Below, piece after piece: positions 14,871 through 64,000 of a stretch of 64,000 nucleotides of DNA. The notes beneath the pieces were generated by a model that did not search any database, was not told the DNA's origin, and was given only the letters and a program-made list of their open reading frames with translations. A program made the position numbers and the translations under genes. The DNA is taken from contig CBDFJR010000002.1 of NCBI GenBank assembly GCA_965248535.1, positions 960,001 to 1,024,000 of the forward strand, in the 5' to 3' direction. This stretch comes from Phormidesmis sp. (GTDB lineage Bacteria > Cyanobacteriota > Cyanobacteriia > Leptolyngbyales > Leptolyngbyaceae). How positions within the stretch are numbered: position 1 is the stretch's first letter; every line of letters starts with the position of its first letter.

Positions 14871-15149
14871 TTATCGCGCTATGGTGTTTGCTAACGCAAA
14901 GGTCGCTAACACGCCCAAAACATGACCAAAACTCATCGAAGCTAAAAATCCTGCAACGCTAATGTCATTAAACAATAATTTTGAGAAAGGCAGCGGCATC
15001 TTAGCTCCCGTATGGGGATAGTTAATGGTGCGGCTAGCAATCAATAAAACCAGCAGGCAGGCCCCAATCATGATGGGAGTGCCTTCCCAGTGCCAAAGCA
15101 GAGTGCCAGGAATCCCGAATTGAGCCACAAAAAATAGAGAATTGATCAC
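14871..15149 (-). CDS. psaK: Photosystem I subunit PsaK (divergent copy)
   Basis: Two TM helices, FLASMSFGHVLG signature, GTG start after AAGGA. Confidence 0.78.
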   Translation of the reverse strand: MINSLFFVAQFGIPGTLLWHWEGTPIMIGACLLVLLIASRTINYPHTGAKMPLPFSKLLFNDISVAGFLASMSFGHVLGVLATFALANTIAR

Positions 15150-46125: not shown

Positions 46126-46172
46126 GAAGCTTGTTCTCCCAGAAATGCAGTGTAGATGCAATTCTCATCAAC

Positions 46173-46604
46173 TTATAAAATTGTTTGTTGTCTTTTTGGA
46201 CGTATATCGAACGCCAAACTAGCCCGGTAAAAGCACACATCAAACTCAGCAAAAAAATTCATATGTCCGAGAATTAAAGGCGCTTTCTGCGATGCTGTCC
46301 AAGCGAACGCCAATAGAACAGGCGAAAATCCAGCCACGATCGCTGACACCACCAAGCCTCGTGCTTCTAGAGAAGCTAAGTTTCCACCTAACTGGACTGG
46401 CACAGTTTGCTCTTCCCAAACAGCCCCCAGTTGTAGACCCATATCACGAGGCAAAACATTGACACTGGCTCCCGTATCTAGCAAGGCTATTGTCTCTAGG
46501 AATTGATTCCTATAAGTCAGCACTACGGGTAGATAGGGCAGGGTGCTGGAAAGACCGAGATTGCTAATTTTCTCAGTGAAAGGAAATCTTTGAGCGTCAA
46601 GCAT
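46173..46604 (-). CDS. Retropepsin-like (clan AA) aspartic protease
   Basis: ALLDTGA catalytic motif, LILG motif, single domain of 143 aa. Confidence 0.8.
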   Translation of the reverse strand: MLDAQRFPFTEKISNLGLSSTLPYLPVVLTYRNQFLETIALLDTGASVNVLPRDMGLQLGAVWEEQTVPVQLGGNLASLEARGLVVSAIVAGFSPVLLAFAWTASQKAPLILGHMNFFAEFDVCFYRASLAFDIRPKRQQTIL

Positions 46605-46857
46605 CTCTCTCTTCCCTGGTTACCTCTAGTAAGTCTGACAAGGTTTGGGCGGCTCCATGCGACTCATAAGGAGACCAGACAACTGCTTCCGTTGAGGCTA
46701 GTTGCTGAAGCAATAATTCTTCTGACTGTCCATCCTGAGTGGCAGTTAAATTGCAGCCTTCTTCCTTAGCTACTGCTAGCAGCAAAAAATGGATCAGGCG
46801 TAATTTATCTTGGTGTGGGAGTTGACTAACGACAGGCAACAGTTCATTAAGAGGCAT
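46597..46857 (-). CDS. Small acidic hypothetical protein, antitoxin-like partner of the protease
   Basis: 86 aa; overlaps the protease start by 8 nt; own RBS (AGGAG). Confidence 0.6.
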   Translation of the reverse strand: MPLNELLPVVSQLPHQDKLRLIHFLLLAVAKEEGCNLTATQDGQSEELLLQQLASTEAVVWSPYESHGAAQTLSDLLEVTREERDA

Positions 46858-46919
46858 ATCGAGACTCCTAAAAGGATTGAATCTAAGGTCAGCTTAACTT
46901 GGCAGATGGCATGAAATTC

Positions 46920-49900
46920 TCATCGACCTCCCATAAACGAGAAAACCTGACGAAATTTGACCTGGGTTATTTTTTTTCGCCACGCTTCCATGTAGATGTA
47001 GAACACAGGCGTGAGATAAAGCGTCAAGATCTGCGAGAAGACTAGCCCGCCCACTACGGCGATTCCCAACGGGCGACGAGATTCAGAACCTGCGCCAAAA
47101 CCGAGCGCGATCGGGAGGGTGCCCATCAGCGCCGCCATCGTGGTCATCATAATCGGACGAAATCGCACCAGACAGGCTTGATAAATGGCTTCCGAGGGTT
47201 TTTGGGCTTGCTCACGCTGGGCGGCGATCGCAAAGTCCACCATCATAATGCCGTTCTTTTTAACAATGCCGACTAACAGCATAATGCCAATGAATGAGTA
47301 AACGTTAAGCTCAACGTGAAAGATAATCAGGGTTAATAACGCTCCAAACCCTGCGGACGGCAAACCCGAAAGAATCGTGATCGGATGAATAAAATCTTCG
47401 TAGAGAATGCCGAGAATCAAGTAGATGACTAGAATCGCAATTAACAGCAAAAGCAACAGGCTGGGTAACGAACTTTGAAAAACCTGACTCGCTCCTTTAA
47501 AGCTGGTGCTAATGCTATCAGGAATGGTGGAATGAACGATCTCATCAATTTTGCTATTTGCTGCGCCGAGAGACACGCCAGGGGCGAGGTTAAACGAAAT
47601 CGTGGCGGCATTCATGCGACCCACATGATTCACCATTAGGGGTGCGGTTCCCGGCGAAATCGTCGCAAAAGTGCTGAGAGGAATCGCTTGTCCACTGCTA
47701 GAACTGTTGACGTTGCTATTACTCGCCGTGTCTCCAGTAGCATTGCTAACATTACTTCCCGTCGTGGTGATATAGAGCTTCATCAAAGCATTGGGATCTT
47801 GCTGATATTGAGGTTCCAGTTCTAAAATCACCTGATATTCATTGCTTGCAGCATAAATTGTTGAGACCTGATAGGCTCCGTAGGCATTTCTCAACGTGCT
47901 TTCGATCTGCTGGGCGGTGATTCCTAGGGCTGAAGCTTTGTCGCGATCGATATCCAGTTTGACCTGAGCCGTCATCTGAAGATCGCTATTGACATCCTGA
48001 AGTTCTGGCAGGGCTTTGAGTTTGTCAACCAGTTGCGGAACATATTGCTGCAAGGGCTGGACATCGGAATTTTGCAGCGAGAGTTGATAGAGTCCCGTGG
48101 TTTGCTGAGTGCCGATCGGGAGGGCCGGAGGATTTTGCAAAAAGACCTGAATGCCGGGAATGGTAGCGAGTCGCGATCGTAGACTTTGAATAATCTCATC
48201 CGCCTTCATCGAACGCTGATCTCGCGGCTTCAACCGAATAAATAAACTTCCAGAATTCCCGGCTACGGCGGCTCCGCTGCCACTGGCACTCGCACTCGCC
48301 CCGATCGTGGAGTTGACCGCATCCACATTGGGATCTTGACGAATCAAATCCGCAACGTCTTGCTGGTGACGCACTAGCTCATCAAACGAGGCATCCTGTG
48401 CAGCTTGAGTGATGCCCGTGATCTGCCCCGTATCTTGGCTGGGAATGAAACCCTTGGGCACCACCGCCAACAGCCCAACCGTAGCGATCAGCAGCGCCGC
48501 TGAAAAAATCATCATAGTGCGGTGATATTTTAAGGCTTTTTTGAGACTCCAATCATAGAGAGCAAGCACCCGATCGAAGGCCGCTTCAGAAGCCCGATAG
48601 AGCCGACTCTGGCGCGAGTGATCGACCGGACGCAGGAACCGACTGCACAGCATCGGAGTCAGACTGAGGGAGACAAACCCTGAGACGAGAATCGAGACCG
48701 CGATCGTCACGGCAAATTCATGAAACAATCGCCCCAGCAGTTCACTCATAAACAACATGGGAATGAACACGGCGACTAACGAAAGCGTCATCGATAAAAT
48801 GGTGAAACCAATCTCTCGTGAGCCATTCAGTGCTGCTTCAAGCGGACGTTCGCCCATTTCTAAGTGACGAACGATATTTTCGAGCATCACGATCGCGTCA
48901 TCGACCACAAATCCGACTGAGAGTGTTAACGCCATCAGAGACAGATTATCTAGCGAATAGTTCAACTGGTGCATTACCGCAAATGTGCCAATTAACGACA
49001 CAGGCAGAGCTAAACTAGGAATCACGGTCGCTGATAGATTTCTCAAAAATAAGAAAATGACCAGGACTACTAGCGCGATCGTCAAAATTAACGTGAACCG
49101 AACATCGTCTACCGATTCTCGAATCGACTGAGACGCATCATAAAGAACGCCGATCTCAACCGATGCCGGAATCTGTTCCCTCAGCTTTGGCAACAGTTTC
49201 TGAATCGTGTCAACGACCTGTACTGTATTGGTTCCAGGCTGACGTTGAATCGTTAAAATAATCGCTCGATCGTTGTTATACCAGCTTGCAACCTGATCGT
49301 TTTCTACGCTGTCAATCACTCGACCGAGTTGTTCAAGATAAATGGGTGCGCCATCTTTATAAGCAACGATGAGTTTTCGATAGGCAGCCGCATCTTGAAG
49401 TTGCCCGTTTGTTTGGACAGTATAGTTTTTGTTGGTTCCAGACAGGCTTCCCGTTGGCAGATTCACATTCCCCTGCTGAATTGCCGTTTGCACCTGATCA
49501 ATCCCCAGTTTTCGAGCCGCTAACGCTTGAGGGTTGAGTTGAATTCGAGCCGCATATTTTTGCGACCCATAGACGCTCACTTGGGCTACACCGCTAATTG
49601 TCGAGAGCTTTTGCGCTAAAAATGTCTCAGCATAATTGTCTACCTCCGACAGCGGCAGCGTTGGCGAATCGAGATAAAGATAGAGAATGGGCTGATCAGC
49701 AGGATTAACCTTGCTGTAGGTGGGCGGATTGGGCAAATCGTTGGGAATCTGCCCCGACGCTGACGAAATCGCCGCTTCCACGTCTTGGGCGGCATCATCA
49801 ATACTGCGGCTGAGATCAAATTGCAGCGTCAGTTGAGCTTTGCCAAAGGTGCTAGTTGAGTTGAGCGAGTCAAGTCCGGCAATGCTTGAAAACTGCTTTT

Positions 49901-50102
49901 CTAACGGGCGAGACACCGATGCCGCCATCGTTTCGGGGCTGGCTCCCGGTCGCGCCGCCGTCACCTGAATTGTCGGATAATCCACGCTGGGCAGGTCACT
50001 GATCGGCAGCGATCGGTAGCTCATCAACCCAAAAATAATGATCCCCGCCATCACCAAGGTCGTCATGATCGGACGGCGAATAAATAACTCCGAGAGATTC
50101 AT
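46920..50102 (-). CDS. RND permease (MdtB/MdtC-like), copy 1
   Basis: MNLSELFIRRPI, GFVVDDAIVMLENI, RFRPIMMTT; ATGA overlap with the MFP gene. Confidence 0.94.
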   Translation of the reverse strand: MNLSELFIRRPIMTTLVMAGIIIFGLMSYRSLPISDLPSVDYPTIQVTAARPGASPETMAASVSRPLEKQFSSIAGLDSLNSTSTFGKAQLTLQFDLSRSIDDAAQDVEAAISSASGQIPNDLPNPPTYSKVNPADQPILYLYLDSPTLPLSEVDNYAETFLAQKLSTISGVAQVSVYGSQKYAARIQLNPQALAARKLGIDQVQTAIQQGNVNLPTGSLSGTNKNYTVQTNGQLQDAAAYRKLIVAYKDGAPIYLEQLGRVIDSVENDQVASWYNNDRAIILTIQRQPGTNTVQVVDTIQKLLPKLREQIPASVEIGVLYDASQSIRESVDDVRFTLILTIALVVLVIFLFLRNLSATVIPSLALPVSLIGTFAVMHQLNYSLDNLSLMALTLSVGFVVDDAIVMLENIVRHLEMGERPLEAALNGSREIGFTILSMTLSLVAVFIPMLFMSELLGRLFHEFAVTIAVSILVSGFVSLSLTPMLCSRFLRPVDHSRQSRLYRASEAAFDRVLALYDWSLKKALKYHRTMMIFSAALLIATVGLLAVVPKGFIPSQDTGQITGITQAAQDASFDELVRHQQDVADLIRQDPNVDAVNSTIGASASASGSGAAVAGNSGSLFIRLKPRDQRSMKADEIIQSLRSRLATIPGIQVFLQNPPALPIGTQQTTGLYQLSLQNSDVQPLQQYVPQLVDKLKALPELQDVNSDLQMTAQVKLDIDRDKASALGITAQQIESTLRNAYGAYQVSTIYAASNEYQVILELEPQYQQDPNALMKLYITTTGSNVSNATGDTASNSNVNSSSSGQAIPLSTFATISPGTAPLMVNHVGRMNAATISFNLAPGVSLGAANSKIDEIVHSTIPDSISTSFKGASQVFQSSLPSLLLLLLIAILVIYLILGILYEDFIHPITILSGLPSAGFGALLTLIIFHVELNVYSFIGIMLLVGIVKKNGIMMVDFAIAAQREQAQKPSEAIYQACLVRFRPIMMTTMAALMGTLPIALGFGAGSESRRPLGIAVVGGLVFSQILTLYLTPVFYIYMEAWRKKITQVKFRQVFSFMGGR

Positions 50103-51706
50103 GAATCGCCTCCTGCGGGCTTCAAGGGCTGACTTCCCCCCGATCGATTCCGTCTAGTTTTCTGAGTTCCTGTTGGGTTCGCATTTCCGTTATTAACAGT
50201 ATTTTGATTGCCGTCACTCGAACCGGGAGCACGATTTCCATTCATTGCCGGAGCCGTATTTCCGTTGACGTTGGGATTACTGTTACCCGCAGCGTTGCCA
50301 TTATTTCCACCCTGAGAGTCTGGTTTGGCGCGAATCTTGCTGCCAGTGACGAGATTTGCCTGACCATCGGTGACCACTTGATCGCCAGGTTGCAGTCCTT
50401 TTTGCACCACGTTTAACCCCCCGATCGAGTTGCTCACCGTCACCGGAACATTTTCAACCGTCGAGTCAGACTTAACAACAAACACAAACTGTCCGTTTGG
50501 CCCATTTTGCACCGCTTGAGCAGGCACCACGATCGCGTTTGGTTCTTGAGTCAACGTCAGCGTCGTGTTCACAAACTGACCCGGAAACAAATTCCCTTGA
50601 GCATTATCAAAGTCACCAATTAACTGAATCGTTCCCGTTGTGTTATCCACTGTATTGTTCACAAACGACAGCGTTCCCTGAGTTGGCGTATTGCTCCCCG
50701 CAAACGTCACTGAAACCTTGAGTTTGCCGTTTTCGGTATGTTTCTGAATCTCTGGCAAATTCGACTCTGGAACCGAGAAAGACACCTGAATCGGACGAAT
50801 CTGAGCGATCGTCACGAGCGGATTGGTGCTATTTGCCTGCACCACGTTGCCCTCGGTTACCAAGACGTTGCCAGCCCGACCGTCGATCGGGGCATAAATT
50901 TTAGTGTAAGACGACTGCACCTGGCTGCTCTGCAACGCTCCACCGTTGGCGCTAACCACAGCCTGAGCCGTCTCGATCGCCGCTTGATCGCCTTTCACCA
51001 CCTCTTGAGCATTGGCAATCGCCTCTCGATCAGACTGAAGCGTGGACTCAAAAACCTGGCTATTGGTCGCATATTGCTGCGCTTGATCTTGACTGATCGC
51101 CCCTTGCTTATACAAATTGTTGTAGCGATCGCTCTGGGCCTGAGCAAACTTAGCCTGAGCTTGATCTTTAACTAGGGTCGCCTCCGCCTGTCTCACCAGC
51201 CCCAAATCTCTTGCTAACGCGGCTCTCGCCTGCTGCACTTGGGACTGAGACACCGCCACCGTTCCCTGAGCTTGTTGAATCGAGGCGGTTTGAGTGCGAT
51301 CGTCGATCGTGAACAACAGATCACCTTTGCGGATATCTTGGCCCTTTTTGAAATAGACACCCGTGATCCGTCCGCCAACTTGCGGTGTGATAGAAACCGT
51401 CGATCCGGCTTGCACCGTCCCGATCGTTTGCAACTGTACCGGAACCGTTTTTTGAATCACCGTAGCCACTGTCACGGGCGTGATTTGCTCTCTGCTGTTC
51501 CTTCCGGACTGATCAGCAGGTTTAGCCGCAAACGATCTGATTCCAAAAAATCCCGCCGTCGCCAGCACTAACAGCCCGGCGATCGCCAGACCCAGCCGCT
51601 TTTTTGGGAGAGGTTGAGCGATCTGGGATACCTCCGTCTCCGTCAAATTTTGATCAGATTCATGAGCAATCTCATCCAGCGTTTCTTTAGGGATTTGTTG
51701 AGTCAT
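50099..51706 (-). CDS. RND periplasmic adaptor (MdtA-like) with Asn/Gly-rich tail
   Basis: TM anchor, IYAPIDGRAG, VDNTTGTI, LFPGQF. Confidence 0.92.
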   Translation of the reverse strand: MTQQIPKETLDEIAHESDQNLTETEVSQIAQPLPKKRLGLAIAGLLVLATAGFFGIRSFAAKPADQSGRNSREQITPVTVATVIQKTVPVQLQTIGTVQAGSTVSITPQVGGRITGVYFKKGQDIRKGDLLFTIDDRTQTASIQQAQGTVAVSQSQVQQARAALARDLGLVRQAEATLVKDQAQAKFAQAQSDRYNNLYKQGAISQDQAQQYATNSQVFESTLQSDREAIANAQEVVKGDQAAIETAQAVVSANGGALQSSQVQSSYTKIYAPIDGRAGNVLVTEGNVVQANSTNPLVTIAQIRPIQVSFSVPESNLPEIQKHTENGKLKVSVTFAGSNTPTQGTLSFVNNTVDNTTGTIQLIGDFDNAQGNLFPGQFVNTTLTLTQEPNAIVVPAQAVQNGPNGQFVFVVKSDSTVENVPVTVSNSIGGLNVVQKGLQPGDQVVTDGQANLVTGSKIRAKPDSQGGNNGNAAGNSNPNVNGNTAPAMNGNRAPGSSDGNQNTVNNGNANPTGTQKTRRNRSGGSQPLKPAGGDS

Positions 51707-51757
51707 GGGATTCTTTAGAAGTCTCAAGTTCAAACAGCAGTCTATTAGTCTAAGAGA

Positions 51758-54125: not shown

Positions 54126-54241
54126 CGTTAGCGTTCATTCTAAAAGACAGTCTGCGTCTCATACGCAATCAATTTGTAAATGATATCACTCCAACTCCAT
54201 CCGGACGATCGCCCGCGGCCGCCGTCGAGGAAAAAACCATC

Positions 54242-54285
54242 AAAAAAAGAAGAAGGGCAAGACCGATAAAAGTCTTGCCCTTCTT
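54242..54285 (-). terminator. Rho-independent terminator downstream of the tRNA-Glu fragment
   Basis: Perfect 14-bp stem AAGAAGGGCAAGAC/GTCTTGCCCTTCTT; T7 tract on the minus strand. Confidence 0.85.
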
Positions 54286-54298
54286 ACATTTTGCTGCA

Positions 54299-54320
54299 TA
54301 CCCCCAGGAGAATTCGAATC
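54299..54320 (-). other. att site: displaced 3' end of tRNA-Glu (22 bp)
   Basis: Minus strand GATTCGAATTCTCCTGGGGGTA = T-loop, T-stem and acceptor 3' strand with the A53-U61 pair typical of cyanobacterial tRNA-Glu; no 5' half of the tRNA is adjacent. Confidence 0.8.
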
Positions 54321-54350: not shown

Positions 54351-54521
54351 CTAATGCTGTGGGGACTCTGCCCACTGTTTAGCCTTCCGTTGCCGGATCT
54401 CTGTCGCGACTTCTTCCATAGCCAGTGCCATCTCTAAGCCATCGGTCTCTAACTGCCCGATCATCAACCGCAGAAACCTTTTGTTACTCTCTACCAGAGC
54501 GATATTGAGATTAGTCGTCAT
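54351..54521 (-). CDS. 56-aa hypothetical protein
   Basis: ATG at 54521 overlaps the upstream gene's end; shares an IGQL...ATE.R pattern with the 47-aa ORF. Confidence 0.5.
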   Translation of the reverse strand: MTTNLNIALVESNKRFLRLMIGQLETDGLEMALAMEEVATEIRQRKAKQWAESPQH

Positions 54522-54837
54522 TCGCACCACTCGATCCATGCTTCTTTTCATAGCCGAGAATGCTCGAAACGCTTTCGTCTGTCTTTGCCAGCAAGACATT
54601 GAAGACAGCCGTTAAGGTTTTCATGTCAGCCATTAGTTCGTCAACTTCCTCTGACAACATCTTGATCGACTCCTTCATCTGCTCCTGGTTGCGCCTGAGA
54701 TGGTTAAAGTCTCGCTCTGCGGCATAAGCCTTTTTTTGAGAGTTGGCGTACCACTTCACCATACCGAACGCCGCAGACCCGGCACCCGCTAGAAAGGTAC
54801 TGAGGCTGATCAGGCTTTGCACATCAGGCTGATCCAT
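54511..54837 (-). CDS. Small membrane-anchored coiled-coil protein (holin-like candidate)
   Basis: AGGAG RBS; hydrophobic LISLSTFLAGAGSAAFGMVKW followed by heptads (YAAERDFNHLRRNQEQMKESIKMLSEEVDEL). Confidence 0.55.
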   Translation of the reverse strand: MDQPDVQSLISLSTFLAGAGSAAFGMVKWYANSQKKAYAAERDFNHLRRNQEQMKESIKMLSEEVDELMADMKTLTAVFNVLLAKTDESVSSILGYEKKHGSSGANDD

Positions 54838-54967
54838 TTTGGCTCCTTGCCTCTGTTGCGATCGCTTCAAACACATCTGCCAGCGCACCCAAATCATTGA
54901 GTTGCCCGATCAAAATCTGAAAAGCGATCAACGAAATCTTTTGCTTCAATTCACGAGTAATTTTCAT
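54824..54967 (-). CDS. 47-aa hypothetical protein (absent from the ORF track)
   Basis: MKITRELKQKISLIAFQILIGQLNDLGALADVFEAIATEARSQNGSA fills the gap between flanking genes. Confidence 0.5.
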   Translation of the reverse strand: MKITRELKQKISLIAFQILIGQLNDLGALADVFEAIATEARSQNGSA

Positions 54968-54974
54968 CTTTTAC

Positions 54975-55559
54975 CTAGCTAATAATTGCCCGATCGTGCA
55001 CCCGTCTCCAGTTGGTTCCGTCGCTGAAAGCCAACGTGCCCCCACCCGATTCATCCGACACATAAATAGTTGCCCCGGCTCTGCCCGACGGCGCGGGAAC
55101 GGTAGCCACCGTGCAAGAGCCAAACTGAACGAAACCAGCAACCGCCACATTTCCCGCACCGGGGCTAGGGAGAGACGTAAACGTCAGCGCGGGTGTCTCC
55201 CCATCAACCCGCAATCCTCCAAAAACCTGAACCTTTGCCGTATTGCCATCAATGGCAAAATTCATCTTCCCAGTAACCTCATTCGTGATGCAAAAACTAT
55301 TCCCGTTGCCCAGTAAATAGCTGTCGCTAAAGAAACTCCAGGCCCATGTAGACCCGTGAAAAAACCCAATCCCAGGGCTACCGGGGTGACTGATCACAGC
55401 GCGGGCATAGTATTGGTTACTGCCCGTGAACCGAACCGGGAAGGTTGACGAACTTGGATCACTCACCTCCAGATTTGTGAATTTCCCCGTGTTTGGAGTC
55501 GTTGCCCCGATCGCGCCGGGGCTACCCCAATTTGGCTCAGAGGAATGACGAACGGGCAT
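54975..55559 (-). CDS. Short phage fibre/spike-like protein
   Basis: PGAIGATTPNTGKFTNL and a C-terminal GATIYVSDESGGGTLAFSDGTNWRRV, motifs I recognise from phage fibre proteins. Confidence 0.6.
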   Translation of the reverse strand: MPVRHSSEPNWGSPGAIGATTPNTGKFTNLEVSDPSSSTFPVRFTGSNQYYARAVISHPGSPGIGFFHGSTWAWSFFSDSYLLGNGNSFCITNEVTGKMNFAIDGNTAKVQVFGGLRVDGETPALTFTSLPSPGAGNVAVAGFVQFGSCTVATVPAPSGRAGATIYVSDESGGGTLAFSDGTNWRRVHDRAIIS

Positions 55560-55870
55560 CAGGTCAACTCCGTGATCAGCGCGTTCCCGTTGGCAGTTGC
55601 CCAGATGCCACTAATCACCCCCGTGTAGTTAAAGGGTGTCTCGTAGCAGTCACTCGGATCGAGCCGGGCTGTGAACGCTGATGAAGATGCCGTGGCCGCT
55701 AGCGCTAGATAGAGAGGCGATGTGCTCTGATTGGTGATGATCACCCCCTTTCTGGCAGCGTTAGCAGCAAGAAGCACGGTTGAGGCAGCCACAGAAGCAA
55801 CGGTGCTTAACGTGCCTGTAGCGCTCGTAGTTTGGATCGCGCCGCCCATTGACGTGTGAAATAGTGGCAT
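55559..55870 (-). CDS. Small beta-rich putative virion protein, paralogue B
   Basis: ANAARKGVIITNQSTSPLYL...LDPSDCYETPF...ISGIW. Confidence 0.6.
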   Translation of the reverse strand: MPLFHTSMGGAIQTTSATGTLSTVASVAASTVLLAANAARKGVIITNQSTSPLYLALAATASSSAFTARLDPSDCYETPFNYTGVISGIWATANGNALITELT

Positions 55871-55896
55871 GGCTAGTTCTGTCCTTAGATAAGTAA

Positions 55897-56220
55897 TTAG
55901 CTCTCGATAAAACTGCGAATTGAGGCCTGTCCTTCGTCTGACTCCCAGAGTCCCCACACTTCCGTTGTCGAACTAAACGGGAATTCGTAATAGCCACCCG
56001 GCCCAATTTCAACCAGACAGTCATCAATGGCGACCCGCGCATCTACATCTAGAAAGAGCGCAACCGGGCTGTCATTGCGGATAGTCAACCCAATTCGATT
56101 GGCATCACCCGAAATGAGTTGCACTCGTGAGGCTTTCGCCTTCACTAACTCTTTGCGGATCGTGACCACCTTTCTGGTAACAGTCGAACTAGTTGAAGAA
56201 ACTCCATCAAATAACGGCAT
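55897..56220 (-). CDS. Small beta-rich putative virion protein, paralogue A
   Basis: DANRIGLTIRNDSPVALFL...IGPGGYYEFPF...VWGLW. Confidence 0.6.
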   Translation of the reverse strand: MPLFDGVSSTSSTVTRKVVTIRKELVKAKASRVQLISGDANRIGLTIRNDSPVALFLDVDARVAIDDCLVEIGPGGYYEFPFSSTTEVWGLWESDEGQASIRSFIES

Positions 56221-56228
56221 TGTGGGAC

Positions 56229-56699
56229 TCAGGTTAAGTGGTCAATTTTGCTCTCAATCCGGCTGAGATCTGCTTGGAGGGAATCGATCAGCACTTCCGT
56301 ACTATCGACATCTGGCCCGATGTACTGATAGACAGTTAGCGTGATTTCTTGATGCCAGTAGGGCACCTCAAACCGCAGTTTGTAGTTGCTTGCCACTTGT
56401 GGCAGCATGACCAGTCGAGGGGCATTAAGCGGAATAGGAACCCGGTCAAGTTCAGCAAATCCAAAATCTGTGGCCCCGGTGTCGATCACGGGCCGGAGCC
56501 AGCCGCCCAAATACCAAGTTGACTTAGCCGTTTGGCTTGTGCAGCCAGCGACTAAAATCCGATGCTCACTCTGGACAGGTAGCGTTATGGGTGCCAGTGG
56601 TTCGTAGGTTGTCGGGCCCAAGAACCGAACCCGAAAGTATTGCCGATAGAAGAGAATCCAGTTACTAGCGTTTGCTAGCTGCAAGACGGGATGACTCAT
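56229..56699 (-). CDS. Hypothetical protein (beta-rich, C-terminal coiled coil)
   Basis: 156 aa; ATGA overlap with the upstream gene; ends LQADLSRIESKIDHL. Confidence 0.7.
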   Translation of the reverse strand: MSHPVLQLANASNWILFYRQYFRVRFLGPTTYEPLAPITLPVQSEHRILVAGCTSQTAKSTWYLGGWLRPVIDTGATDFGFAELDRVPIPLNAPRLVMLPQVASNYKLRFEVPYWHQEITLTVYQYIGPDVDSTEVLIDSLQADLSRIESKIDHLT

Positions 56700-56953
56700 T
56701 GCAGCCCGACCGGAAACCCTTGACAGATAATCAGTTCAATCGTCTCCTCAACTCCCTCAACGTAAGCAAGTGGATCAATCGAGTGAGATTCAAGCAGATC
56801 CAAAACTACGTCTGGATGCTCTTTTCCGTCCAGACACGCGGCGATCGCTCTCTGTCGATCAACGTAGCGGATCATCTCTGCTCGTCGATCGGCTTCAGAG
56901 AAATCTGGATTGATAATTTCAAACGTGGTCAAGGGAAGGAGTTGATCGATCAC
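56696..56953 (-). CDS. Small acidic hypothetical protein
   Basis: 85 aa; coupled to the downstream gene. Confidence 0.6.
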   Translation of the reverse strand: MIDQLLPLTTFEIINPDFSEADRRAEMIRYVDRQRAIAACLDGKEHPDVVLDLLESHSIDPLAYVEGVEETIELIICQGFPVGLQ

Positions 56954-57037
56954 AATGGCTTGCTTCTATTAGAGGTTAAAGAATCTCTCAACCGCAGACC
57001 ACAAAAGCTCTACGGTTGAGCAGCGCGAAGCACAAAC

Positions 57038-57559
57038 CTAGATCCGTTCAGGCGAGAGGTAAGCTCGGACGGTGGAACCCGTCGGAACGAGCAAGCCGCG
57101 AATCGTGTCGTAAACGCCCAGCTCGGTGTCACCCGCCGCCGCCTTACCAAACGGAATCGATCGGCTCGTGCCGCCATAGCTGAGATATTTCTGCTTGGTG
57201 ATGTGCGATTCTTTGACCACGCCGTTGTCTTGCCGTCCGGTGACAATGACCACACGAGCGGGTCGAAAGCCGCGAACCCGCAGAGCAGCCCCACCAGATG
57301 GCAAGGTTGCGAGAGCGTGGCTACCAAAGGAGCCTTCGTGTGCAACCCAAGCGGTTTGACTCGCACTCACCTGGAATAGATCGGATGTGGCCGCAGGGGC
57401 CCCAAACGGTTTGACAAAAAGGATTTGAGACTTATCTCGTTTCTTCCCGGTGCCAATTCCCGGTTGGCGGTTCGTCTTGCCCTCAATAAAGGCAACGTAG
57501 TTCGTGAGTGCCTGCTGGTAGCGGGCTGCCCCCGCGATTCGTGAATAGTGTCTGCCCAT
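57038..57559 (-). CDS. Basic hypothetical protein (putative structural or DNA-binding)
   Basis: 173 aa, rich in Gly/Arg/Lys; ATG start. Confidence 0.7.
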   Translation of the reverse strand: MGRHYSRIAGAARYQQALTNYVAFIEGKTNRQPGIGTGKKRDKSQILFVKPFGAPAATSDLFQVSASQTAWVAHEGSFGSHALATLPSGGAALRVRGFRPARVVIVTGRQDNGVVKESHITKQKYLSYGGTSRSIPFGKAAAGDTELGVYDTIRGLLVPTGSTVRAYLSPERI

Positions 57560-57667
57560 GCGATGATTCTCAAAATTAAGATTGCTGCTGCATCATTTCT
57601 AGCAACGGTTTTAGAGTGTTTTGGATGGCTACGGAAGTATACTTGCGCTTTTGTTTTGAACCTTATG

Positions 57668-58477
57668 CTAAAAGGTCACTAGTGGCTTACCCAGTCCGTA
57701 GTGACCCACCAGCAAAATGGGCTTTGCTATTCCATTGATGTGCAGCTCGGCTTTACGGAATTGGACTTGAGTTGTGGGCCGCTGTCGGGGTTTCCTGCGA
57801 ACCTTGCCATAAACTTCCTGCGAGCCGGGACTCGTGGGAAATGGTTTGCGCGCTGTGTGAATCGTCAGAAGCTGTTCGTTAAAGGCGTGCCCTCGAATTT
57901 GTAGAACCTTCTCGATCACCTGCACGGCTTGACCCTCGTTCAGAACGAGCAAGCGGAAATCATAGCCGTGCTCTTTGTCGAGATAGGTCACCTTGACGGT
58001 GCCTCTCTCCCACTTGAAACCGTGGGCGGCTCCAAATAATTCTTTTATTTTGAGTGCGAGTGATTGAGCTTTACCAGGGGTCATCGTTGTTGAGGTTTCA
58101 TTGATCAATCGGAACCCGATCGATGAGTGAATAGGGGCGTATCCTTCCGCCTCTAGTTGGGGTTGATAAACCTCCTGAAAAATCAGGTGAACTTGAGGAC
58201 GAAATTTAACTTCACCCTGGTAGTCTGCAACGGGCAACGCATAGACCGGAGTTGGTAACTTACCCTCAAATACGAAGTAGAACAACATCAACCGTAATAA
58301 GGTCATATCTACGGTGTCGTCTGTGTCCATCAAACAGGCCACTTTCATCCCACTTAAGGGATTTGCTAAGTCGTCGGACGGAACATCTAAAAACGTTTGT
58401 ACTACGTTGCGATTGTGGGCACCCGTCAGCATCTCGTGGAGGTGTTGCCACGGTGAAAAATCATCAGGTAATGGCAT
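57668..58477 (-). CDS. Hypothetical protein, 269 aa
   Basis: TAATG coupling to the 867-aa gene; basic C-terminal patch RRKPRQRP. Confidence 0.75.
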   Translation of the reverse strand: MPLPDDFSPWQHLHEMLTGAHNRNVVQTFLDVPSDDLANPLSGMKVACLMDTDDTVDMTLLRLMLFYFVFEGKLPTPVYALPVADYQGEVKFRPQVHLIFQEVYQPQLEAEGYAPIHSSIGFRLINETSTTMTPGKAQSLALKIKELFGAAHGFKWERGTVKVTYLDKEHGYDFRLLVLNEGQAVQVIEKVLQIRGHAFNEQLLTIHTARKPFPTSPGSQEVYGKVRRKPRQRPTTQVQFRKAELHINGIAKPILLVGHYGLGKPLVTF

Positions 58478-61080
58478 TACAAGTTCCTTATGTGTTCTTC
58501 GCTGGGAGTAGGTGAGGAACTGTGGGCTTTTGCGTCTGCTTCTGCCTTTGCAGTTGCCTTGTGTTCCGGTGGCTTGTTGGGGTTAGTGGCTTCAGCAAGG
58601 TCTTTACTAAGTTCTGCTGATTGCTTTGTTATTTCATCTACAGCCTGTCTACCGTTCAATATCGATTGGGCAACAAAATCGATATTGTTAACAATGTTGA
58701 GGGCATTGTTGATGTTAGTAAAAAACTTGTTGTGAAAGTTCGGATTTGGGTTAAACCATTCCATCGCACGCTGACCAATCACACCATATTTTTTAAGCGC
58801 GTTTCCGATTTTAGCGTTCCAACTTCCAATGATTTCGAGCGAACTTAAAATAGACCATCCGATATTCTGAACCGAATAAATAATGTTGGCACCTGCTTGA
58901 TAAATTCGATTCAGTGCCTTCCATTCTTTCTTCATTCCTTCCAGCGATTCCGTTCCCAATATCGACTTAAGTAAATCGTCGATTTGTTTATCGATAATTT
59001 TGTTGAGTTGAACCGGATCACCATCCTTGTCTTTAATGCCAATCACACTCAATCCATCGGCCACCATTTGCAGCGTTACAACTTTGAGGCTGTCGCATAA
59101 GAAATAGGCGTTTTGTACTGTGACAATGAACGTCATCACATTCAACAATCGATCCAAGTGGAACCACTCGCTGAACTTGCCCAAAAACCCAGAAATGCCG
59201 CCGGGAACTTGATTACCTAACTTGGTATTGATGGTGTTCAACAGAGCTAGATCTGCCACGTTTAACCCAGCGTCAGCAACTTTGCCCAACTTGTCGAGAA
59301 TCGATTGCTGTCCGTCCTCCAAACCAGCCATACAACCGTTCTGGCATTTAGGTTTAGTGCCGATCGGGGGTTTGGGTGGCTCCTTACTCTTAGTGATGTC
59401 ATCTGCGGTCTGTGGGTCGATCGTGCCCTTGGGCCCGGTCGGTCTGGTGAAGATCAGTGGCGGAATAAGTGCTAGCGGCGCTAGCGGCGCAAGAGAGTCT
59501 TTATATTCTTCTAGGGGATCTGTTTTAGGTTTTGTCTTGGGAGGCGTGGGGTTGAGCGGGTGAAGGCGAACCGGGTCGCCACCGATTTGCTTGTCAGGAG
59601 ATAGCGGACTACCCGAAATCGTTGCAGTGACATCTGCCTTTCTTGCGGGGAAGATGCCCCGATCGTTCAACCGTTGCTCAGGAGTTTGAGGCGTTGTTGG
59701 CTGAAAGGAAGGAGGCGTGGGGCTAAGGTCTGGGATGGTTGGCAGTTTCGGCGTTTCGGTCGGGTTGAACGCGGGAAAAATTGGTGCGGTTGGATTTGCG
59801 TCTCGCTCCTTCTTTTCTTCCTTCAACGGGTCGAAGGGGGGTGGATCTAGAAATGGAGTGGGAGCGATCGTGGGGGACGGTTGATGAGGTGGCAAGAAGT
59901 CATCCGGGCCAAACAACCTCATGGGGGGAGGCAGATCAACGCCTGGTGGCAACTCAGGATCGGAGGGATTGGGAGGGGTTCGCCCTGGCGCTGGCCCAAT
60001 AATTTCAAGTGTCCACGGCTCAATTAACGCGGCACCATGCGAGACCTCCAGAGGTGTAATCGACTTGAAAAAACTCCAGCGAATTGAATAGGTATCGGTT
60101 CCCTCTCTTAAAAAAACCTGATTGAGAGAGTTGTCTCTCCTTGGGCCTTGCGTGATGTCGTATCCCAGAACTTGCAAGGTCAAATACGTCCTGTTGTTCG
60201 GGGAATAAAATTTGATTAGAGTCTCGACTGGAAACCAGGCTTTTGATTCAGCGTTTGGTTTGCCGTCTGAGGGGTTGTCTTGATGATCAGGCTCGAACCG
60301 CTTAAACGGATTCAACCAATCAGGGATACCCATATCTCTGGTCTGCTTCTCAGCTTTCCGCATGGCATCCCCATATCCGGCCTTTTCAGCGGCCCATTTC
60401 CCGAAGTCGAGAGCTTTCTGGGCTAGGGTCGGGTTGAGGGCTTGATGCTCAGGGGAATACTCGCCACCGTGACCAATTTTATTCAGCGTATCGGCATATC
60501 TAGAAATACCATTAGCCCAGTTCGGGGGAAAACCAGCAGTCTTTAAGAGTTCCTCTAGGTTTTTTCTACCCTGCTCGTGAAACTGATTAATTTGATCGCC
60601 CACAATCGGATTGAGCAATCCCGGCCCTAGCGCACGCGGATCAAGAACTCCCTTCAAATTTCTCGCAATGCGAGAAGAGAGCGGCCCGGCGATCGGGGGC
60701 GCAGATATTGGGTTACGGTTGCCCAACTGAGTAGCCGGGCCATCTCCCACTAGGCGGTTAATGCCCCGCTCGAAAAAGTTCGGACTGCGGGGTGCTAAGG
60801 GATTGGCACCGCCGCCGCCCGGTGAGATTTTCTGACCCGGTATTAGAGAGCGATCGATGTTGGGGTTGTTTTGAAGCGGTCGAGCGGTGTTGAAGCCCTG
60901 GTTGAGTCGAAACTCACGCAAAACCCCGTTGTCATTGACGGCTTTAGGTGCGACGAGTGGCGGTGGCGGTGGATATTTGGGCTTAAAGTAGCCGTTGCCT
61001 TCGTTTGCAGCAGGTTTGTAGAGAGTCCTCTCAAGCTGCGCCCGGGCCGATAAAATTTCGAGATCTTTGGGGGATACCAT
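58477..61080 (-). CDS. Large Pro-rich hypothetical protein, 867 aa
   Basis: Long ORF coupled at both ends; Pro-rich linker of about 200 aa, CQNGC, then a hydrophobic/helical C-terminal region. Confidence 0.8.
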   Translation of the reverse strand: MVSPKDLEILSARAQLERTLYKPAANEGNGYFKPKYPPPPPLVAPKAVNDNGVLREFRLNQGFNTARPLQNNPNIDRSLIPGQKISPGGGGANPLAPRSPNFFERGINRLVGDGPATQLGNRNPISAPPIAGPLSSRIARNLKGVLDPRALGPGLLNPIVGDQINQFHEQGRKNLEELLKTAGFPPNWANGISRYADTLNKIGHGGEYSPEHQALNPTLAQKALDFGKWAAEKAGYGDAMRKAEKQTRDMGIPDWLNPFKRFEPDHQDNPSDGKPNAESKAWFPVETLIKFYSPNNRTYLTLQVLGYDITQGPRRDNSLNQVFLREGTDTYSIRWSFFKSITPLEVSHGAALIEPWTLEIIGPAPGRTPPNPSDPELPPGVDLPPPMRLFGPDDFLPPHQPSPTIAPTPFLDPPPFDPLKEEKKERDANPTAPIFPAFNPTETPKLPTIPDLSPTPPSFQPTTPQTPEQRLNDRGIFPARKADVTATISGSPLSPDKQIGGDPVRLHPLNPTPPKTKPKTDPLEEYKDSLAPLAPLALIPPLIFTRPTGPKGTIDPQTADDITKSKEPPKPPIGTKPKCQNGCMAGLEDGQQSILDKLGKVADAGLNVADLALLNTINTKLGNQVPGGISGFLGKFSEWFHLDRLLNVMTFIVTVQNAYFLCDSLKVVTLQMVADGLSVIGIKDKDGDPVQLNKIIDKQIDDLLKSILGTESLEGMKKEWKALNRIYQAGANIIYSVQNIGWSILSSLEIIGSWNAKIGNALKKYGVIGQRAMEWFNPNPNFHNKFFTNINNALNIVNNIDFVAQSILNGRQAVDEITKQSAELSKDLAEATNPNKPPEHKATAKAEADAKAHSSSPTPSEEHIRNL

Positions 61081-61385
61081 TAGTTCTCTTTGAAGGCGGT
61101 TGGGATAGCGACGTTAGAGAATTCTTTTGCAAACATCCAGAGCTTCTTGGTGCGATCGCTGATGAAGTTAGGGTCAACGGCAAATGAGGAGCGAATCAGC
61201 AGACGGTTGGAATTGTCGGCGGCGCTAAAAATTCCGGTTTGCATCACAAACTGGGCTAGGTTTTCAGCCTCTAACACAGCCAGAGAGGGATTGATGCGAT
61301 CAAGGGTCAGTCCGCTCCAGGCGTGAAGCTGCTCAAGCGTGACGATCGAGTTGGGGATATCCGTAGCTAGGTTAATGACAGTCAT
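61080..61385 (-). CDS. Hypothetical protein, 101 aa; first gene of the structural operon
   Basis: TAATG overlap with the 867-aa gene. Confidence 0.7.
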   Translation of the reverse strand: MTVINLATDIPNSIVTLEQLHAWSGLTLDRINPSLAVLEAENLAQFVMQTGIFSAADNSNRLLIRSSFAVDPNFISDRTKKLWMFAKEFSNVAIPTAFKEN

Positions 61386-61596
61386 AGGAAGAGGTAGTAA
61401 ATGTGACCTCTACAGCGTTCCCATACCGAGACTCATCTGTATTACCTGAGTCCGCGTACTACATCCAGTGGACTAAAAACGGACTAAAAAGGGCTTGTAG
61501 CACGAAACTACAAACCCTGAAAGTGTGATTCTCCCGTGACAGTCGATCACCGGAAAGCTGATTCTCTCGTTGGACTTCTGCGGCAACTGCAACGGT

Positions 61597-61845
61597 TCAA
61601 GAGGGATTTCCAGCGAATCTATAAAATCTCTGTCTCATTCCGCCACGCTTATGTAAACGCACCTCATCCCAGTAAGCGACAACAAATCCCTTTCTCTCTA
61701 GTCTCCACATCGTCGTGGTGAAAATTTCATAGCCTAGCTGCTTTTGCAGCATTGGAGCCGTCATCGGGCAATCAAGCAAGGCAAGTAAAATTTGTCTGTC
61801 ACGGTCTTTAGTGGCGACCAGGTTAAACCACAGGGATTTGAACAT
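61597..61845 (-). CDS. Winged-helix (PadR-like) DNA-binding protein
   Basis: ILLALLDCPMTAPMLQKQL...TMWRLERKGFV...RQRFYRF; AAGGA RBS. Confidence 0.6.
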   Translation of the reverse strand: MFKSLWFNLVATKDRDRQILLALLDCPMTAPMLQKQLGYEIFTTTMWRLERKGFVVAYWDEVRLHKRGGMRQRFYRFAGNPS

Positions 61846-61858
61846 TTCCGTTCCTTGA

Positions 61859-62182
61859 TCAACGCCGATCGCGAATAATATCCCATTTGATCTTGTCCCA
61901 AATCCACGCATCTGACTGGTGAGGGTAGCCCGCTCTCAGGTTGTCATAGAGTCGATAAGCCGTCTCTTTGTTGTGAGTCAAAGCGATGATCTCGATCGGC
62001 ACTGGGATGATGCCAAAGTCGAGTTCGCGGGTTCGAGGTTTTGGCGCACGTCGCTTGCGTTGTCTAGGCTGAGGGTTTCGTGCGCCTCTATCGTAAGCCT
62101 CGTTGATCAGGAAGAACATCAAGAAAATCGAGCCGATCACCGATAAGATGATCGCCAACGCTGTCGGCGGATCTAGTTTCAT
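61859..62182 (-). CDS. Single-TM hypothetical protein
   Basis: N-terminal TM, basic linker, C-terminal WIWDKIKWDIIRDRR. Confidence 0.65.
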   Translation of the reverse strand: MKLDPPTALAIILSVIGSIFLMFFLINEAYDRGARNPQPRQRKRRAPKPRTRELDFGIIPVPIEIIALTHNKETAYRLYDNLRAGYPHQSDAWIWDKIKWDIIRDRR

Positions 62183-62298: not shown

Positions 62299-64000
62299 TC
62301 AACTCTGCAAGTCGGCTTTGTGATAAATCTGTACGTCATTTATCGCAAACACGCTATTTCGACCCGTCACCTGGTTTCGCACTCGAATGCGATCGCCCTT
62401 GATCTCCAGCACCCTGCTAGGTTGACGCAACTCATCAAAGAAGACTTCCCCTACAAATTTGATAGGAATTGAGCTTGCATCTTTCTTACTTCCCGGTAAT
62501 TCCTTGGATGGTGGCTTGTCACTTCCGGCACGAAACCATGTAGCTGAGGTGTTAGCGATGATGATGTCACCAGGCGCAATCGAATGATCGCCATTGTCAA
62601 TTGGAGGGGGGGCGATCATTAGGCGATCATTAGGTCGATCATTAGGTTTTTCCTTATTTAATGCGGGGGTGAGGGGGTTAATGATCGGTCGATCGCCATT
62701 TTCGGGGTTTCTCAACAGTGAAATTTTTTCATTTTGGCGATCGCTCGGATCACTCACCCCTTCAGATGGCGGTATAGCGTTGTTTTTCGAGTGATCGATC
62801 GAGTGATCGCCGAGCGATCGCGGGTCAATCTGGCGATCACTCGATCGCTTGGTTCCGACGTAGTAAAGCATCGTGCTGCCCTGTCCTTTTGGGCACCTCG
62901 ATATCAAACCTTTGTTCCACATCTCCTTAACGACTTTCCTGATCGTGTTCTTGTGATTTGGAGGTGATGGGCTAGCTCTTCCACTTCGTAGGGCAAGCCA
63001 TAATGCTCATCCTCGTTTAGCCAAAGTTCGATCCGCTTTTCGGTGTGGGCTGTCTCTTCTTGTCCCTCATCTCCCTCCTTCCCTAGATACGCAAAGGTAA
63101 ACGCCTCTTCATCAAACTGGAACTTATAGCGCCCTGGTGGTCGGCCCATTCGAGTTTTCTGAACTCTCAGCACTCGTTCCCCGCTACTTTCATCAGCGAC
63201 GGTTAAACCCCACACCTCAGAGGCTGAGTTGTAGAGGGCTTTGGTGCCGCGTGACTCCCCTTCTGAGTTGGAGTGGTGAATCACGGCAAAGGTGCAGCCG
63301 TAGCGATCGCCCAAGTCATTCAGCTTGAGCATGAAGCGGGCATACTCGGTATCGTTCTCACTGATCAGCGTGTTTCGGTTAACGGAGGTCACCGAGTCGA
63401 TCATGCAGAACCTAACCGGATCACCTGCTTCTTTGTAGGACTTAAGGTAAGCCTCAAGCCGAGCCATGTTTTCAATTTGCCAGCCGGGAACGACGCGGAC
63501 GGGGTGATCATTGGTGAGTTGGCGGATCTGCATTCTCTCGCTGGTCACGACGACGGGTTCGTCAGACTGCATGACTAAGACTCGACCCTGAGCCACGGGG
63601 TAGCCGTTCCAGGGTTGCCCTTTGGCGATGCACTCAATCAGTTCGTAGAGCATCAATGATTTGCCCGCGCCGCCCATCGCGTGAAGTAAGAGCACGATGC
63701 CTTGCGGAATCCAGCCACTGACGACCCAATCTTTGACGGACTGGCAGAGTTTCCCTAGATCTTCAACGCCATAGTCAATAAACGGAGTCTGGTTGATGAG
63801 TGCTTTGTAGTAGCAGTTCATCATGGAGTTTTTGGAGATTTTGAAGCGCTTGGAAAGTTTTTCGAGCTTGAAGTCCCTCACACCTTCATCAAGAAGAGAT
63901 TCTACTTTCTTGATCTGCTCAACCATTTTGCTAAATTCGACCTCCTCAAGGTCAATGCCATGGGGCGCTAGGAGGTCTTGAGCAATTTGATCGACGAGTT
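62299..64000 (-). CDS. Replication protein: AAA_25/RecA-like helicase domain plus wHTH; 5' end outside the window; 1-bp frameshift near 62951
   Basis: Walker A AMGGAGKS, Walker B CMIDS, IHH and RGTKAL motifs. The frame is open to 64000; restoring one base gives LQITKNTIRKVVKEMWNKGLI and joins ORF 62299..62922. Confidence 0.78.
62586..62846. repeat. GATC cluster and 3 tandem CGATCATTAGG copies; putative replication origin
   Basis: 14 GATC sites counted by eye in about 260 bp; tandem repeat at 62613-62646. Confidence 0.55.

Follow-up and report, generated by a model that had tools for sequence, protein, structure and literature searches.

What kind of mobile element carries a compact block of twelve structural-type genes and none of the hallmark genes of known phage classes? 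This question is raised by a locus of Phormidesmis sp. (contig CBDFJR010000002.1, positions 960,001 to 1,024,000), a stretch of 64,000 nucleotides (nt) that is called the window throughout. At window positions 61385-54351, twelve co-oriented minus-strand genes form an operon that makes up the distal half of an island integrated at a tRNA-Glu gene. We tentatively interpret this operon, with slightly less than even confidence, as the late module, of virion type, in a temperate virus-like element of 14.07 kb that belongs to a large undescribed family, met so far only in cyanobacteria. By function, the operon is best read as serving adsorption and release, with shell and packaging parts that are either new folds or supplied by a helper.

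The operon is part of a complete island at tRNA-Glu

Within the window and the next 10 kb, the ends of a complete island are marked by 117-nt direct repeats of 97% identity with a spacing of 14,066 bp. The left copy of this attachment (att) repeat ends in a tRNA-Glu 3' end, and the right copy covers the 3' 22 nt of tRNA-Glu(UUC) together with the 3' end of an open reading frame (ORF) of 285 amino acids (aa), which belongs to the Pfam family Phage_integrase and adjoins this tRNA gene. ARAGORN detected no tRNA within the window; the intact tRNA-Glu sits 4.4 kb past its end. With a tyrosine recombinase beside a tRNA gene and repeats that copy the tRNA 3' end, the island is an integrative mobile element, inserted by its tyrosine integrase at the att repeats. 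The initial annotation had regarded the operon as a complete module, bounded by an att site and a replication module. The repeats and the integrase bear this out, and the remaining 4.4 kb beyond the window, which encodes regulators, small membrane proteins and the integrase, contains no head, tail or Zot gene. The features of the operon and of the adjoining parts of the island are listed below in window coordinates.

61080-61385, minus strand: 101-aa protein; first and best-conserved operon gene, 80-88% identity to the closest relatives
58477-61080, minus strand: 867-aa fibre-like protein; N-terminal region, conserved middle domain, proline-rich spacer, conserved helical C-terminal domain
57668-58477, minus strand: 269-aa protein; core family marker of the element
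57038-57559, minus strand: 173-aa basic protein, isoelectric point (pI) 10.4; candidate DNA-associated structural protein
56696-56953, minus strand: 85-aa acidic protein, pI 4.2
56229-56699, minus strand: 156-aa beta-rich protein with a coiled-coil end; proposed spike stalk or anchor
55897-56220, minus strand: 107-aa knob-domain protein; MPLF start
55559-55870, minus strand: 103-aa knob-domain protein; MPLF start (longest ORF 132 aa; internal ATG)
54975-55559, minus strand: 194-aa fibre-like protein; no Pfam match
54824-54967, minus strand: 47-aa ORF; no homologue in the related loci compared, may not be a gene
54511-54897, minus strand: holin-like protein; 128-aa ORF with probable start at 54837 (108 aa); coiled coil after one hydrophobic segment
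54351-54599, minus strand: small helical protein, last operon gene; 82-aa ORF with probable start at the ATG at 54521 (56 aa)
54204-54320: left att copy, 117 nt; its last 22 nt equal the tRNA-Glu 3' end
54250-54285: bidirectional terminator hairpin of 14-15 pairs within the left att copy
61490-61518, minus strand: terminator-like hairpin in the 211-nt gap upstream of the operon; 12 pairs and a T run, consensus match only
61597-62182, minus strand: 104-aa and 107-aa genes between helicase and operon; partial homologues in relatives, no family match
62299-64000 and on to genome position 1024170, minus strand: replication helicase; 421-aa AAA_25 part and 207-aa C-terminal part

The initial annotation had counted about 11 co-oriented genes. 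The ORF list agrees with the sizes and the common orientation and raises the count to 12, in the order 101, 867, 269, 173, 85, 156, 107, 103, 194, 47, 108 and 56 aa. Several stop and start codons are coupled, as had been described, with overlaps of 1 nt (101/867, 867/269 and 103/194) or 4 nt (85/156) according to the coordinates, and the widest intergenic gaps measure 108 and 84 nt. Hairpins of terminator type lie on both sides of the operon, in line with one transcription unit. The guanine-plus-cytosine content of the region is not distinct from that of its surroundings. From the operon towards the integrase gene, the island continues with the 104- and 107-aa genes, the latter encoding a product with one N-terminal transmembrane segment, the AAA_25 helicase gene, a 70-aa gene, the gene of a divergent HTH_31 regulator (42 bits in Pfam) that adjoins the oppositely oriented helicase block, and four plus-strand genes.

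Operon order is conserved among cyanobacterial relatives

Thirteen loci around relatives of the 269 gene were compared by BLASTP. The 867 and 269 genes were always present (13 of 13) and the 156 and 101 genes occurred in 12 and 11 loci, respectively; the order was the same throughout. A chance run of ORFs would not keep its order in 13 loci from other genomes, and the operon is therefore no such run. Iterated hidden Markov model profiles extended the 173 family to 14 loci, where the positional homologues measure 176-189 aa, and placed members of the 85 and 156 families in 19 loci each. Syntenic relatives lie at tRNA-Glu or tRNA-Met genes, and the expectation of syntenic clusters at tRNAs in other cyanobacteria thus held. 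Att-type repeats bound five of the nine relative regions examined, at 14,958, 15,820 and 13,841 bp for those at tRNA-Glu and at 16,277 and 15,646 bp for those at tRNA-Met; the other four are without such a pair. The five bounded relatives are complete and share with this island the tyrosine recombinase beside the tRNA gene. Apart from integration and replication, for which the present island is of an ordinary kind, the operon is the one part that stays constant, and it accounts for half of each element. Relatives can differ in their replication module by exchange, the forms seen being a 632-aa AAA_25 protein, a protein of ~800 aa with AAA_25, DnaB_C and MarR, or a 1110-aa DUF3854-D5_N-DUF5906 protein.

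The 269-aa protein served as a marker of the distribution of the family. Among 90 genomes of the same order, 12 (this genome counted) encode relatives of 30-51% identity. An even sample of the phylum gave matches at E 1e-10 or better in 42 of its 401 genomes, covering 28 of 156 genera; a single genome had at most four. A profile built from 45 members matched 692 representatives at E <=1e-3, and 378 at E <=1e-30, in a library of 1.84 billion proteins whose representatives stand for clusters at 50% identity. Ten of these clusters were looked up; their only named members were from Limnothrix and Moorena, all labelled "hypothetical protein". The family is also carried by Phormidesmis priestleyi ULC007, which has two elements, and by Nostoc, Almyronema, Anabaena, Microcystis and Calothrix. 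Twelve loci were also found on metagenome contigs, none of them (0/12) with a terminal overlap indicating a circle. The latter result carries little weight, since several loci cover only parts of contigs.

One chromosome of the sample carries two 269-family matches with identical scores (G392:C1:1070443-1071252 and 6170870-6171679), which suggests that this element was recently duplicated or twice integrated.

The operon encodes probable fibre, stalk and knob proteins

The 867-aa protein consists of 12% proline overall, and its C-terminal domain has 53 relatives, all cyanobacterial or unnamed. In five of ten tested relatives, the central region contains collagen triple-helix repeats above the Pfam cut-off, at the position that is occupied by the proline-rich spacer in this protein; an alanine zipper scored above its cut-off in three of the ten. 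The 107- and 103-aa proteins, which had been described as two beta-rich paralogues, share 29% identity (E 3e-10), and both begin with MPLF. Their knob domain is also found C-terminal to an N-terminal domain in 203-435-aa proteins of relatives, some of which end in F5_F8_type_C (31.9 bits) or Laminin_G_3 (sub-threshold), and one relative encodes an MPLF-starting protein with a Peptidase_S74 chaperone domain (29.6 bits). The 156-aa protein is fused to the knob domain in a 226-aa protein of the second island E2 described below, and the knob domain is met both fused and split among relatives. These fusion patterns point to spike parts for the beta-rich 156-, 107- and 103-aa proteins. We also considered the 107/103-aa pair as a split double jelly-roll capsid protein and dropped this candidate, as the same domain ends stalk-and-lectin proteins.

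The C-terminal half of the 194-aa protein aligned weakly (33% identity, E 1e-3) with the annotated tail fibre of Burkholderia phage AH2. Together with the lectin-type domains at a variable distal position in relatives, this match gives the variable distal genes the look of host-recognition genes, and it agrees with the fibre-like protein named in the initial annotation. A holin-like protein had likewise been named at the operon end. The 128-aa protein there gave the single PHROG match below E 1e-3, a weak one to a holin family (phrog_1296, E 4.7e-4; two more PHROG matches lay at ~E 0.05), and contains a single hydrophobic segment at residues 29-47; it is present in 9 related loci. Strongly hydrophobic segments are absent from the other 11 of the 12 operon proteins. 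The small protein encoded by the last operon gene has homologues of 51-55 aa in two related loci (L015, L021) and in E2, without a family match.

Judged by its domains, the set of 867-, 156-, 107-, 103- and 194-aa proteins can be read as an apparatus of fibre, stalk, knobs and lectins whose heads are exchangeable. Such a set is typical of host recognition by virions. Neither the search for hydrophobic segments nor inspection by eye revealed a Sec-type hydrophobic N-terminus in the fibre proteins. Since the fibre, stalk and knob proteins contain no strongly hydrophobic segment, they are probably assembled in the cytoplasm.

Candidate shell proteins have confident models without solved counterparts

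The 269-, 173- and 156-aa proteins had been named as candidate capsid proteins, with AlphaFold and Foldseek as the check. AlphaFold2 returned confident models of the 269-aa protein (45 sequences; predicted local distance difference test score, pLDDT, 87; predicted template modelling score, pTM, 0.62) and the 173-aa protein (25 sequences; pLDDT 84, pTM 0.68). The jelly-roll or other capsid fold that would have supported the idea did not appear in these two models. The 269-aa model comprises an N-terminal three-helix bundle and a C-terminal alpha/beta domain, and Foldseek against PDB and BFVD found nothing at E <=1e-3. The 173-aa model combines an alpha+beta domain with a helix at residues 4-26 and a disordered basic loop, and is not a four-helix bundle; its best BFVD match had E 0.15. 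In VIA-align against representatives, the 269-aa model reached a top Z of 5.6 and the 173-aa model best values of 4.1 and 3.4, both below the level common among unrelated chains for this tool. A second VIA-align look at the 269-aa model gave matches to 50-residue sub-domains only. Sequence-profile searches of PDB with the 269, 173 and 101 alignments yielded nothing below E 0.5, and ESM Atlas held no model of the 269- or 173-aa protein, with all feature matches below 0.9. The predicted folds of the 269- and 173-aa proteins are confident and have no solved counterpart. The notion of three recognisable capsid proteins was not supported, the 156-aa protein behaving as a spike stalk.

Three 2H-phosphoesterase proteins aligned with residues 91-262 of the 269-aa model (Z 5.2, 5.0 and 4.3). 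Homology of the C-terminal domain to this group was rejected, as the Z values lie under the noise guide of the tool and no histidine is invariant in the family. For the latter reason we do not read the 269-aa protein as an enzyme. Six distant relatives (367-520 aa) combine the 269-family C-terminal domain with N-terminal parts of other kinds, and one of these six ORFs contains sub-threshold collagen-like repeats with a masked stretch directly ahead of them. The 101-aa protein matched a 98-aa protein of E2 by profile (E 5.8e-13) and gave no PDB, Pfam or PHROG match.

Profile searches reveal no known capsid, packaging or satellite genes

None of the 12 operon proteins scored above a curated Pfam cut-off, the sub-threshold rows being coiled-coil noise, and none of the 12 matched NCBIfam. 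Together with the weak PHROG results, this agrees with the initial annotation, in which no terminase, portal, capsid, tail, endolysin, FtsK/A32 or Zot gene had been recognised. The same picture emerged for the whole island. No island ORF matched a capsid family in Pfam or PHROGs, nor did the 269- and 173-aa models give an HK97-like match. For the terminase large subunit and portal protein of Caudoviricetes, profiles of Pfam, PHROGs and NCBIfam matched no island ORF, and since only the fibre-like 867-aa protein and the AAA_25 helicase exceed 300 aa, no ORF is left that is big enough for either. Varidnaviria-type non-tailed phages (Corticoviridae, Tectiviridae, Autolykiviridae, Matsushitaviridae) have a vertical jelly-roll major capsid protein, double or paired single, and an FtsK/HerA (A32-like) packaging ATPase. 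No ORF of the island matched a profile of this ATPase, and the replicative-type AAA_25 helicase is the sole P-loop protein found. Inoviridae and other filamentous phages are marked by a Zot/pI-type assembly ATPase and a hydrophobic major coat protein of ~50 aa; here Zot was not matched in Pfam or PHROGs, and no operon protein besides the 128-aa one has a hydrophobic segment. Satellite marker families (small terminase, capsid-size and interference genes) were not matched in Pfam, PHROGs, NCBIfam or PADLOC, and PADLOC found no defence system among 18 proteins. In ESM Atlas, viral hypothetical proteins make up the clusters nearest to the 156- and 173-aa proteins, a weak lead at scores of 0.78-0.87, which lie below the level that counts. 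Searches of full-text literature, as far as the texts are accessible, returned no description of the family; we do not claim its absence from print.

In the module of a distant relative, a 144-aa protein (L054 6190-6624) gave a sub-threshold match to Tlde1 (L,D-transpeptidase-like; E 2e-4), the only hint of a cell-wall enzyme seen anywhere in the family.

Parts of the module recur on a second island and two plasmids

A second island in the same genome, E2, measures 13,383 bp between repeats at tRNA-Met (L039 2991-16485; G000:C2:1426990-1440484). In common with the main element, it encodes the 98-aa relative of the 101-aa protein, an 831-aa relative of the 867-aa protein (E 1e-6), a 203-aa fibre with 59% identity to the 194-aa protein, a 56-like protein, a membrane-plus-coiled-coil protein and the same type of integrase. 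Homologues of the 269- and 173-aa proteins are missing. In E2, the knob domain follows an N-terminal domain plus coiled coil in a 232-aa protein and a 156-like part in a 226-aa protein. By sequence comparison, E2 is a distant cousin of the main element. E2 also contains six 21-bp iteron-like repeats (L039 5197-5358) and encodes a very basic 154-aa protein.

Further relatives are found on two circular plasmids of Nostocales HT-58-2. A 15.6-kb plasmid combines ParA/ParB and an integrase with the 867-269 pair, and a 37-kb plasmid with ParB, a restriction-modification system and a transposon carries homologues of the 867, 269, 173, 85 and 156 genes. The pair on the smaller plasmid and most of the module on the larger one favour another view of the island, in which it is an integrative plasmid-like replicon and the operon is cargo or a contact or adhesion device, for instance one of fibrous surface structures, with no DNA-containing particle. 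Collagen-like and lectin domains are, as is generally known, also found in cell-surface proteins, and the lack of a capsid fold in the two folded proteins fits this view as well.

The element resembles small temperate viruses and satellites in part

Corticoviridae (PM2-like) proviruses, the Vibrio NO16 group and Matsushitaviridae (IN93/P23-77) have been described as elements of 10-17 kb that integrate by a tyrosine integrase, possess a compact late operon with spike and lysis genes, and are frequent as cryptic proviruses in aquatic bacteria (PMC9966536, PMC11630473, PMC5894146). The island resembles these small temperate non-tailed phages in genome size, tyrosine integrase and a compact late operon with spike and lysis-type genes. 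Their virions are built from a jelly-roll major capsid protein, and they encode an FtsK/HerA-type packaging ATPase. In contrast, no ORF of the island matches either of these by profile, and the folded 269- and 173-aa proteins are alpha/beta rather than jelly-roll.

With phage satellites, namely P4-like elements as well as phage-inducible chromosomal islands (PICIs), the island shares a size within 11-18 kb, an integrase, a primase or helicase of AAA_25/D5 type, a tRNA or other fixed att site, and the lack of a capsid gene and a terminase large subunit. The core of P4-like, PICI, cfPICI and PLE satellites, an integrase plus primase/helicase on an island of ~10-18 kb, is present here as Phage_integrase and AAA_25 on 14,066 bp. 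To our knowledge, the satellites described so far encode a few genes that manipulate the helper and lack a set of fibre, spike or lectin genes. The island differs in possessing such a set and in matching no satellite marker family.

Rudiviridae lack a packaging ATPase and possess a small DNA-coating major protein and one very large terminal-fibre protein; we know of rod-shaped double-stranded DNA (dsDNA) viruses of this type from archaea only. The likeness of the island to them is one of logic, since no similarity in sequence or fold was found and the 173-aa protein is not a four-helix bundle. Fibre and spike modules of tailed phages share with the operon collagen-like shafts, Peptidase_S74, discoidin and ConA-like lectin heads, and a short common N-terminal motif on alternative receptor-binding proteins, to which the weak match to the AH2 tail fibre may be added. 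However, no tape-measure, tube, baseplate, portal or head gene stands alongside the operon, and none of the matches to the 269-aa model resembles a distal tail protein.

Virion module, remnant, satellite or plasmid cargo

If the operon is the late module of a temperate virus-like element, its products would be made in the cytoplasm and build an adsorption apparatus associated with a particle. The 867-aa protein would form a long fibre with a proline-rich or collagen-like shaft, and the 156-aa stalk would bear exchangeable knob and lectin heads that share the MPLF N-terminus (107, 103 and 194 aa). The strongly conserved 101-aa protein may be a further part of this apparatus. The 269-aa and the basic 173-aa proteins are the best candidates for a shell that encloses or coats the DNA. 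Because no packaging ATPase is found in the element, DNA uptake would proceed by co-assembly rather than by a terminase-type motor, and release would involve the coiled-coil membrane protein at the operon end.

Several results weigh against this virion-type reading. No capsid fold appeared in the two folded proteins (269 and 173 aa, of 12), and no packaging ATPase, portal or endolysin was found in the element by Pfam, PHROGs or NCBIfam. The 37-kb plasmid is too large for a particle sized for 14-16 kb. A tblastn search of 50,697 phage records gave no match to the 269-, 156-, 867- and 103-aa proteins, and scans of IMG/VR with the 269 single sequence, the 269 alignment and the 101 alignment gave no relative. 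Four arrays of clustered regularly interspaced short palindromic repeats (CRISPR) were detected in this genome by a custom script, and no spacer matches any family locus compared. Public-run contigs from two runs cover the element in several variants; among contigs of three runs, which cannot reveal rare forms, we found neither a joint between the att copies nor an empty site. Finally, the replication helicase is split, and this copy may be defective or the assembly wrong at that base.

A stronger version of the virion-type reading is that the element represents a new lineage of bacterial dsDNA viruses, whose particle has neither known capsid folds nor a packaging motor and which is widespread as proviruses and plasmid-like episomes in filamentous cyanobacteria. 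We regard this version as rather unlikely. As an example, the particle could be a nucleoprotein or helical one, made of the basic 173-aa, the 269-aa and/or the 101-aa protein, with collagen-like fibre tips. Such a lineage would be invisible to hallmark-based virus finders.

Whatever the nature of the family, this copy could be a decaying remnant that is no longer mobile, a possibility that we consider doubtful without dismissing it. The helicase (AAA_25, 82 bits in Pfam, with matches to PHROG primase/helicase families as well) consists of 421- and 207-aa parts, overlapping at window 62904-62922, versus one 632-aa protein in relatives (L015, L021), and the att copies differ at 3% of positions. 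Some of the contigs from two public runs have an additional base within a short A run (L002 8954; window 62953), which brings both parts into one frame according to frame arithmetic. However, a split in a homopolymer is possibly an assembly error, both forms are present in the runs, and no damage is seen in the operon ORFs (12 of 12 intact), the integrase or the two att copies.

A serious rival, though unlikely on balance, is a helper-dependent satellite that brings its own integration, replication and host-recognition fibres and takes capsid, packaging and perhaps tail from an unidentified cyanophage. This would account for the lack of capsid, terminase, portal and packaging ATPase genes in the element, for an operon that mostly reads as fibres and spikes rather than shell proteins, and for a size of 13-16 kb with an integrase and primase-helicase core, as we know it from P4-like elements and PICIs. 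On the other hand, none of the known satellite markers was matched, and 7 kb of conserved structural-type genes far exceeds what we know of satellites. Moreover, no resident tailed prophage was detected in the 99.8%-complete genome by PF05065, PF03237, PF03354 and PF04860, which weakens the satellite reading a little, although a lytic helper would escape such a search.

The plasmid-like replicon without a particle introduced above is improbable, since the fibre proteins lack a Sec-type N-terminus, a constant operon that makes up half of every element fits a function in transmission better than cargo, a holin-like gene stands at the operon end, and PADLOC found no defence genes.

Neighbouring genes and further sequence features

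To the left, the island is flanked by host genes for a histidine kinase and a LuxR-type regulator, and to the right by host genes for an acyltransferase, a radical S-adenosylmethionine protein and psbA. Upstream of the two-component pair, two ORFs of ~1,060 aa and one of 544 aa on the minus strand (window 42991-51733) look by size and sequence like a resistance-nodulation-division (RND)-type efflux pump and its membrane-fusion protein.

The four plus-strand genes of the island, past the window end, encode proteins of 102, 162, 90 and 273 aa (L002 11546-13300), three of them with hydrophobic segments. This block is kept in three related loci (L015, L019, L020), is missing from other relatives and has no family match; it could serve superinfection exclusion or act at the membrane in the life cycle. 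Directly upstream of the integrase gene stands an exact tandem pair of 19 nt (L002 13361-13414), and three 14-nt repeats lie inside the 207-aa helicase ORF (L002 8611-8647). Both could be recombinase arm sites or an origin. Elsewhere in the genome, a long repeat array (G000:C5:1512676-1519297) contains 22-mers that recur up to 69 times; its spacers match no family locus compared.

Implications

The discovery of viruses in genomes and metagenomes relies on a handful of hallmark genes. A bounded, mobile and size-constrained element in about one in ten sampled cyanobacterial genomes is a candidate for a class of viruses or satellites that hallmark-based methods do not see, and two of its core proteins, of 269 and 173 aa, have confident predicted folds with no solved counterpart. 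Should the element prove to be a satellite, it would be the first on record to supply an apparatus of its own for host recognition. If particles exist, the virion architectures of bacteria would gain a further one, and cyanobacteria that form mats and crusts, such as Phormidesmis, Nostoc, Limnothrix, Moorena and Microcystis, would have a new agent of mortality and gene flow.

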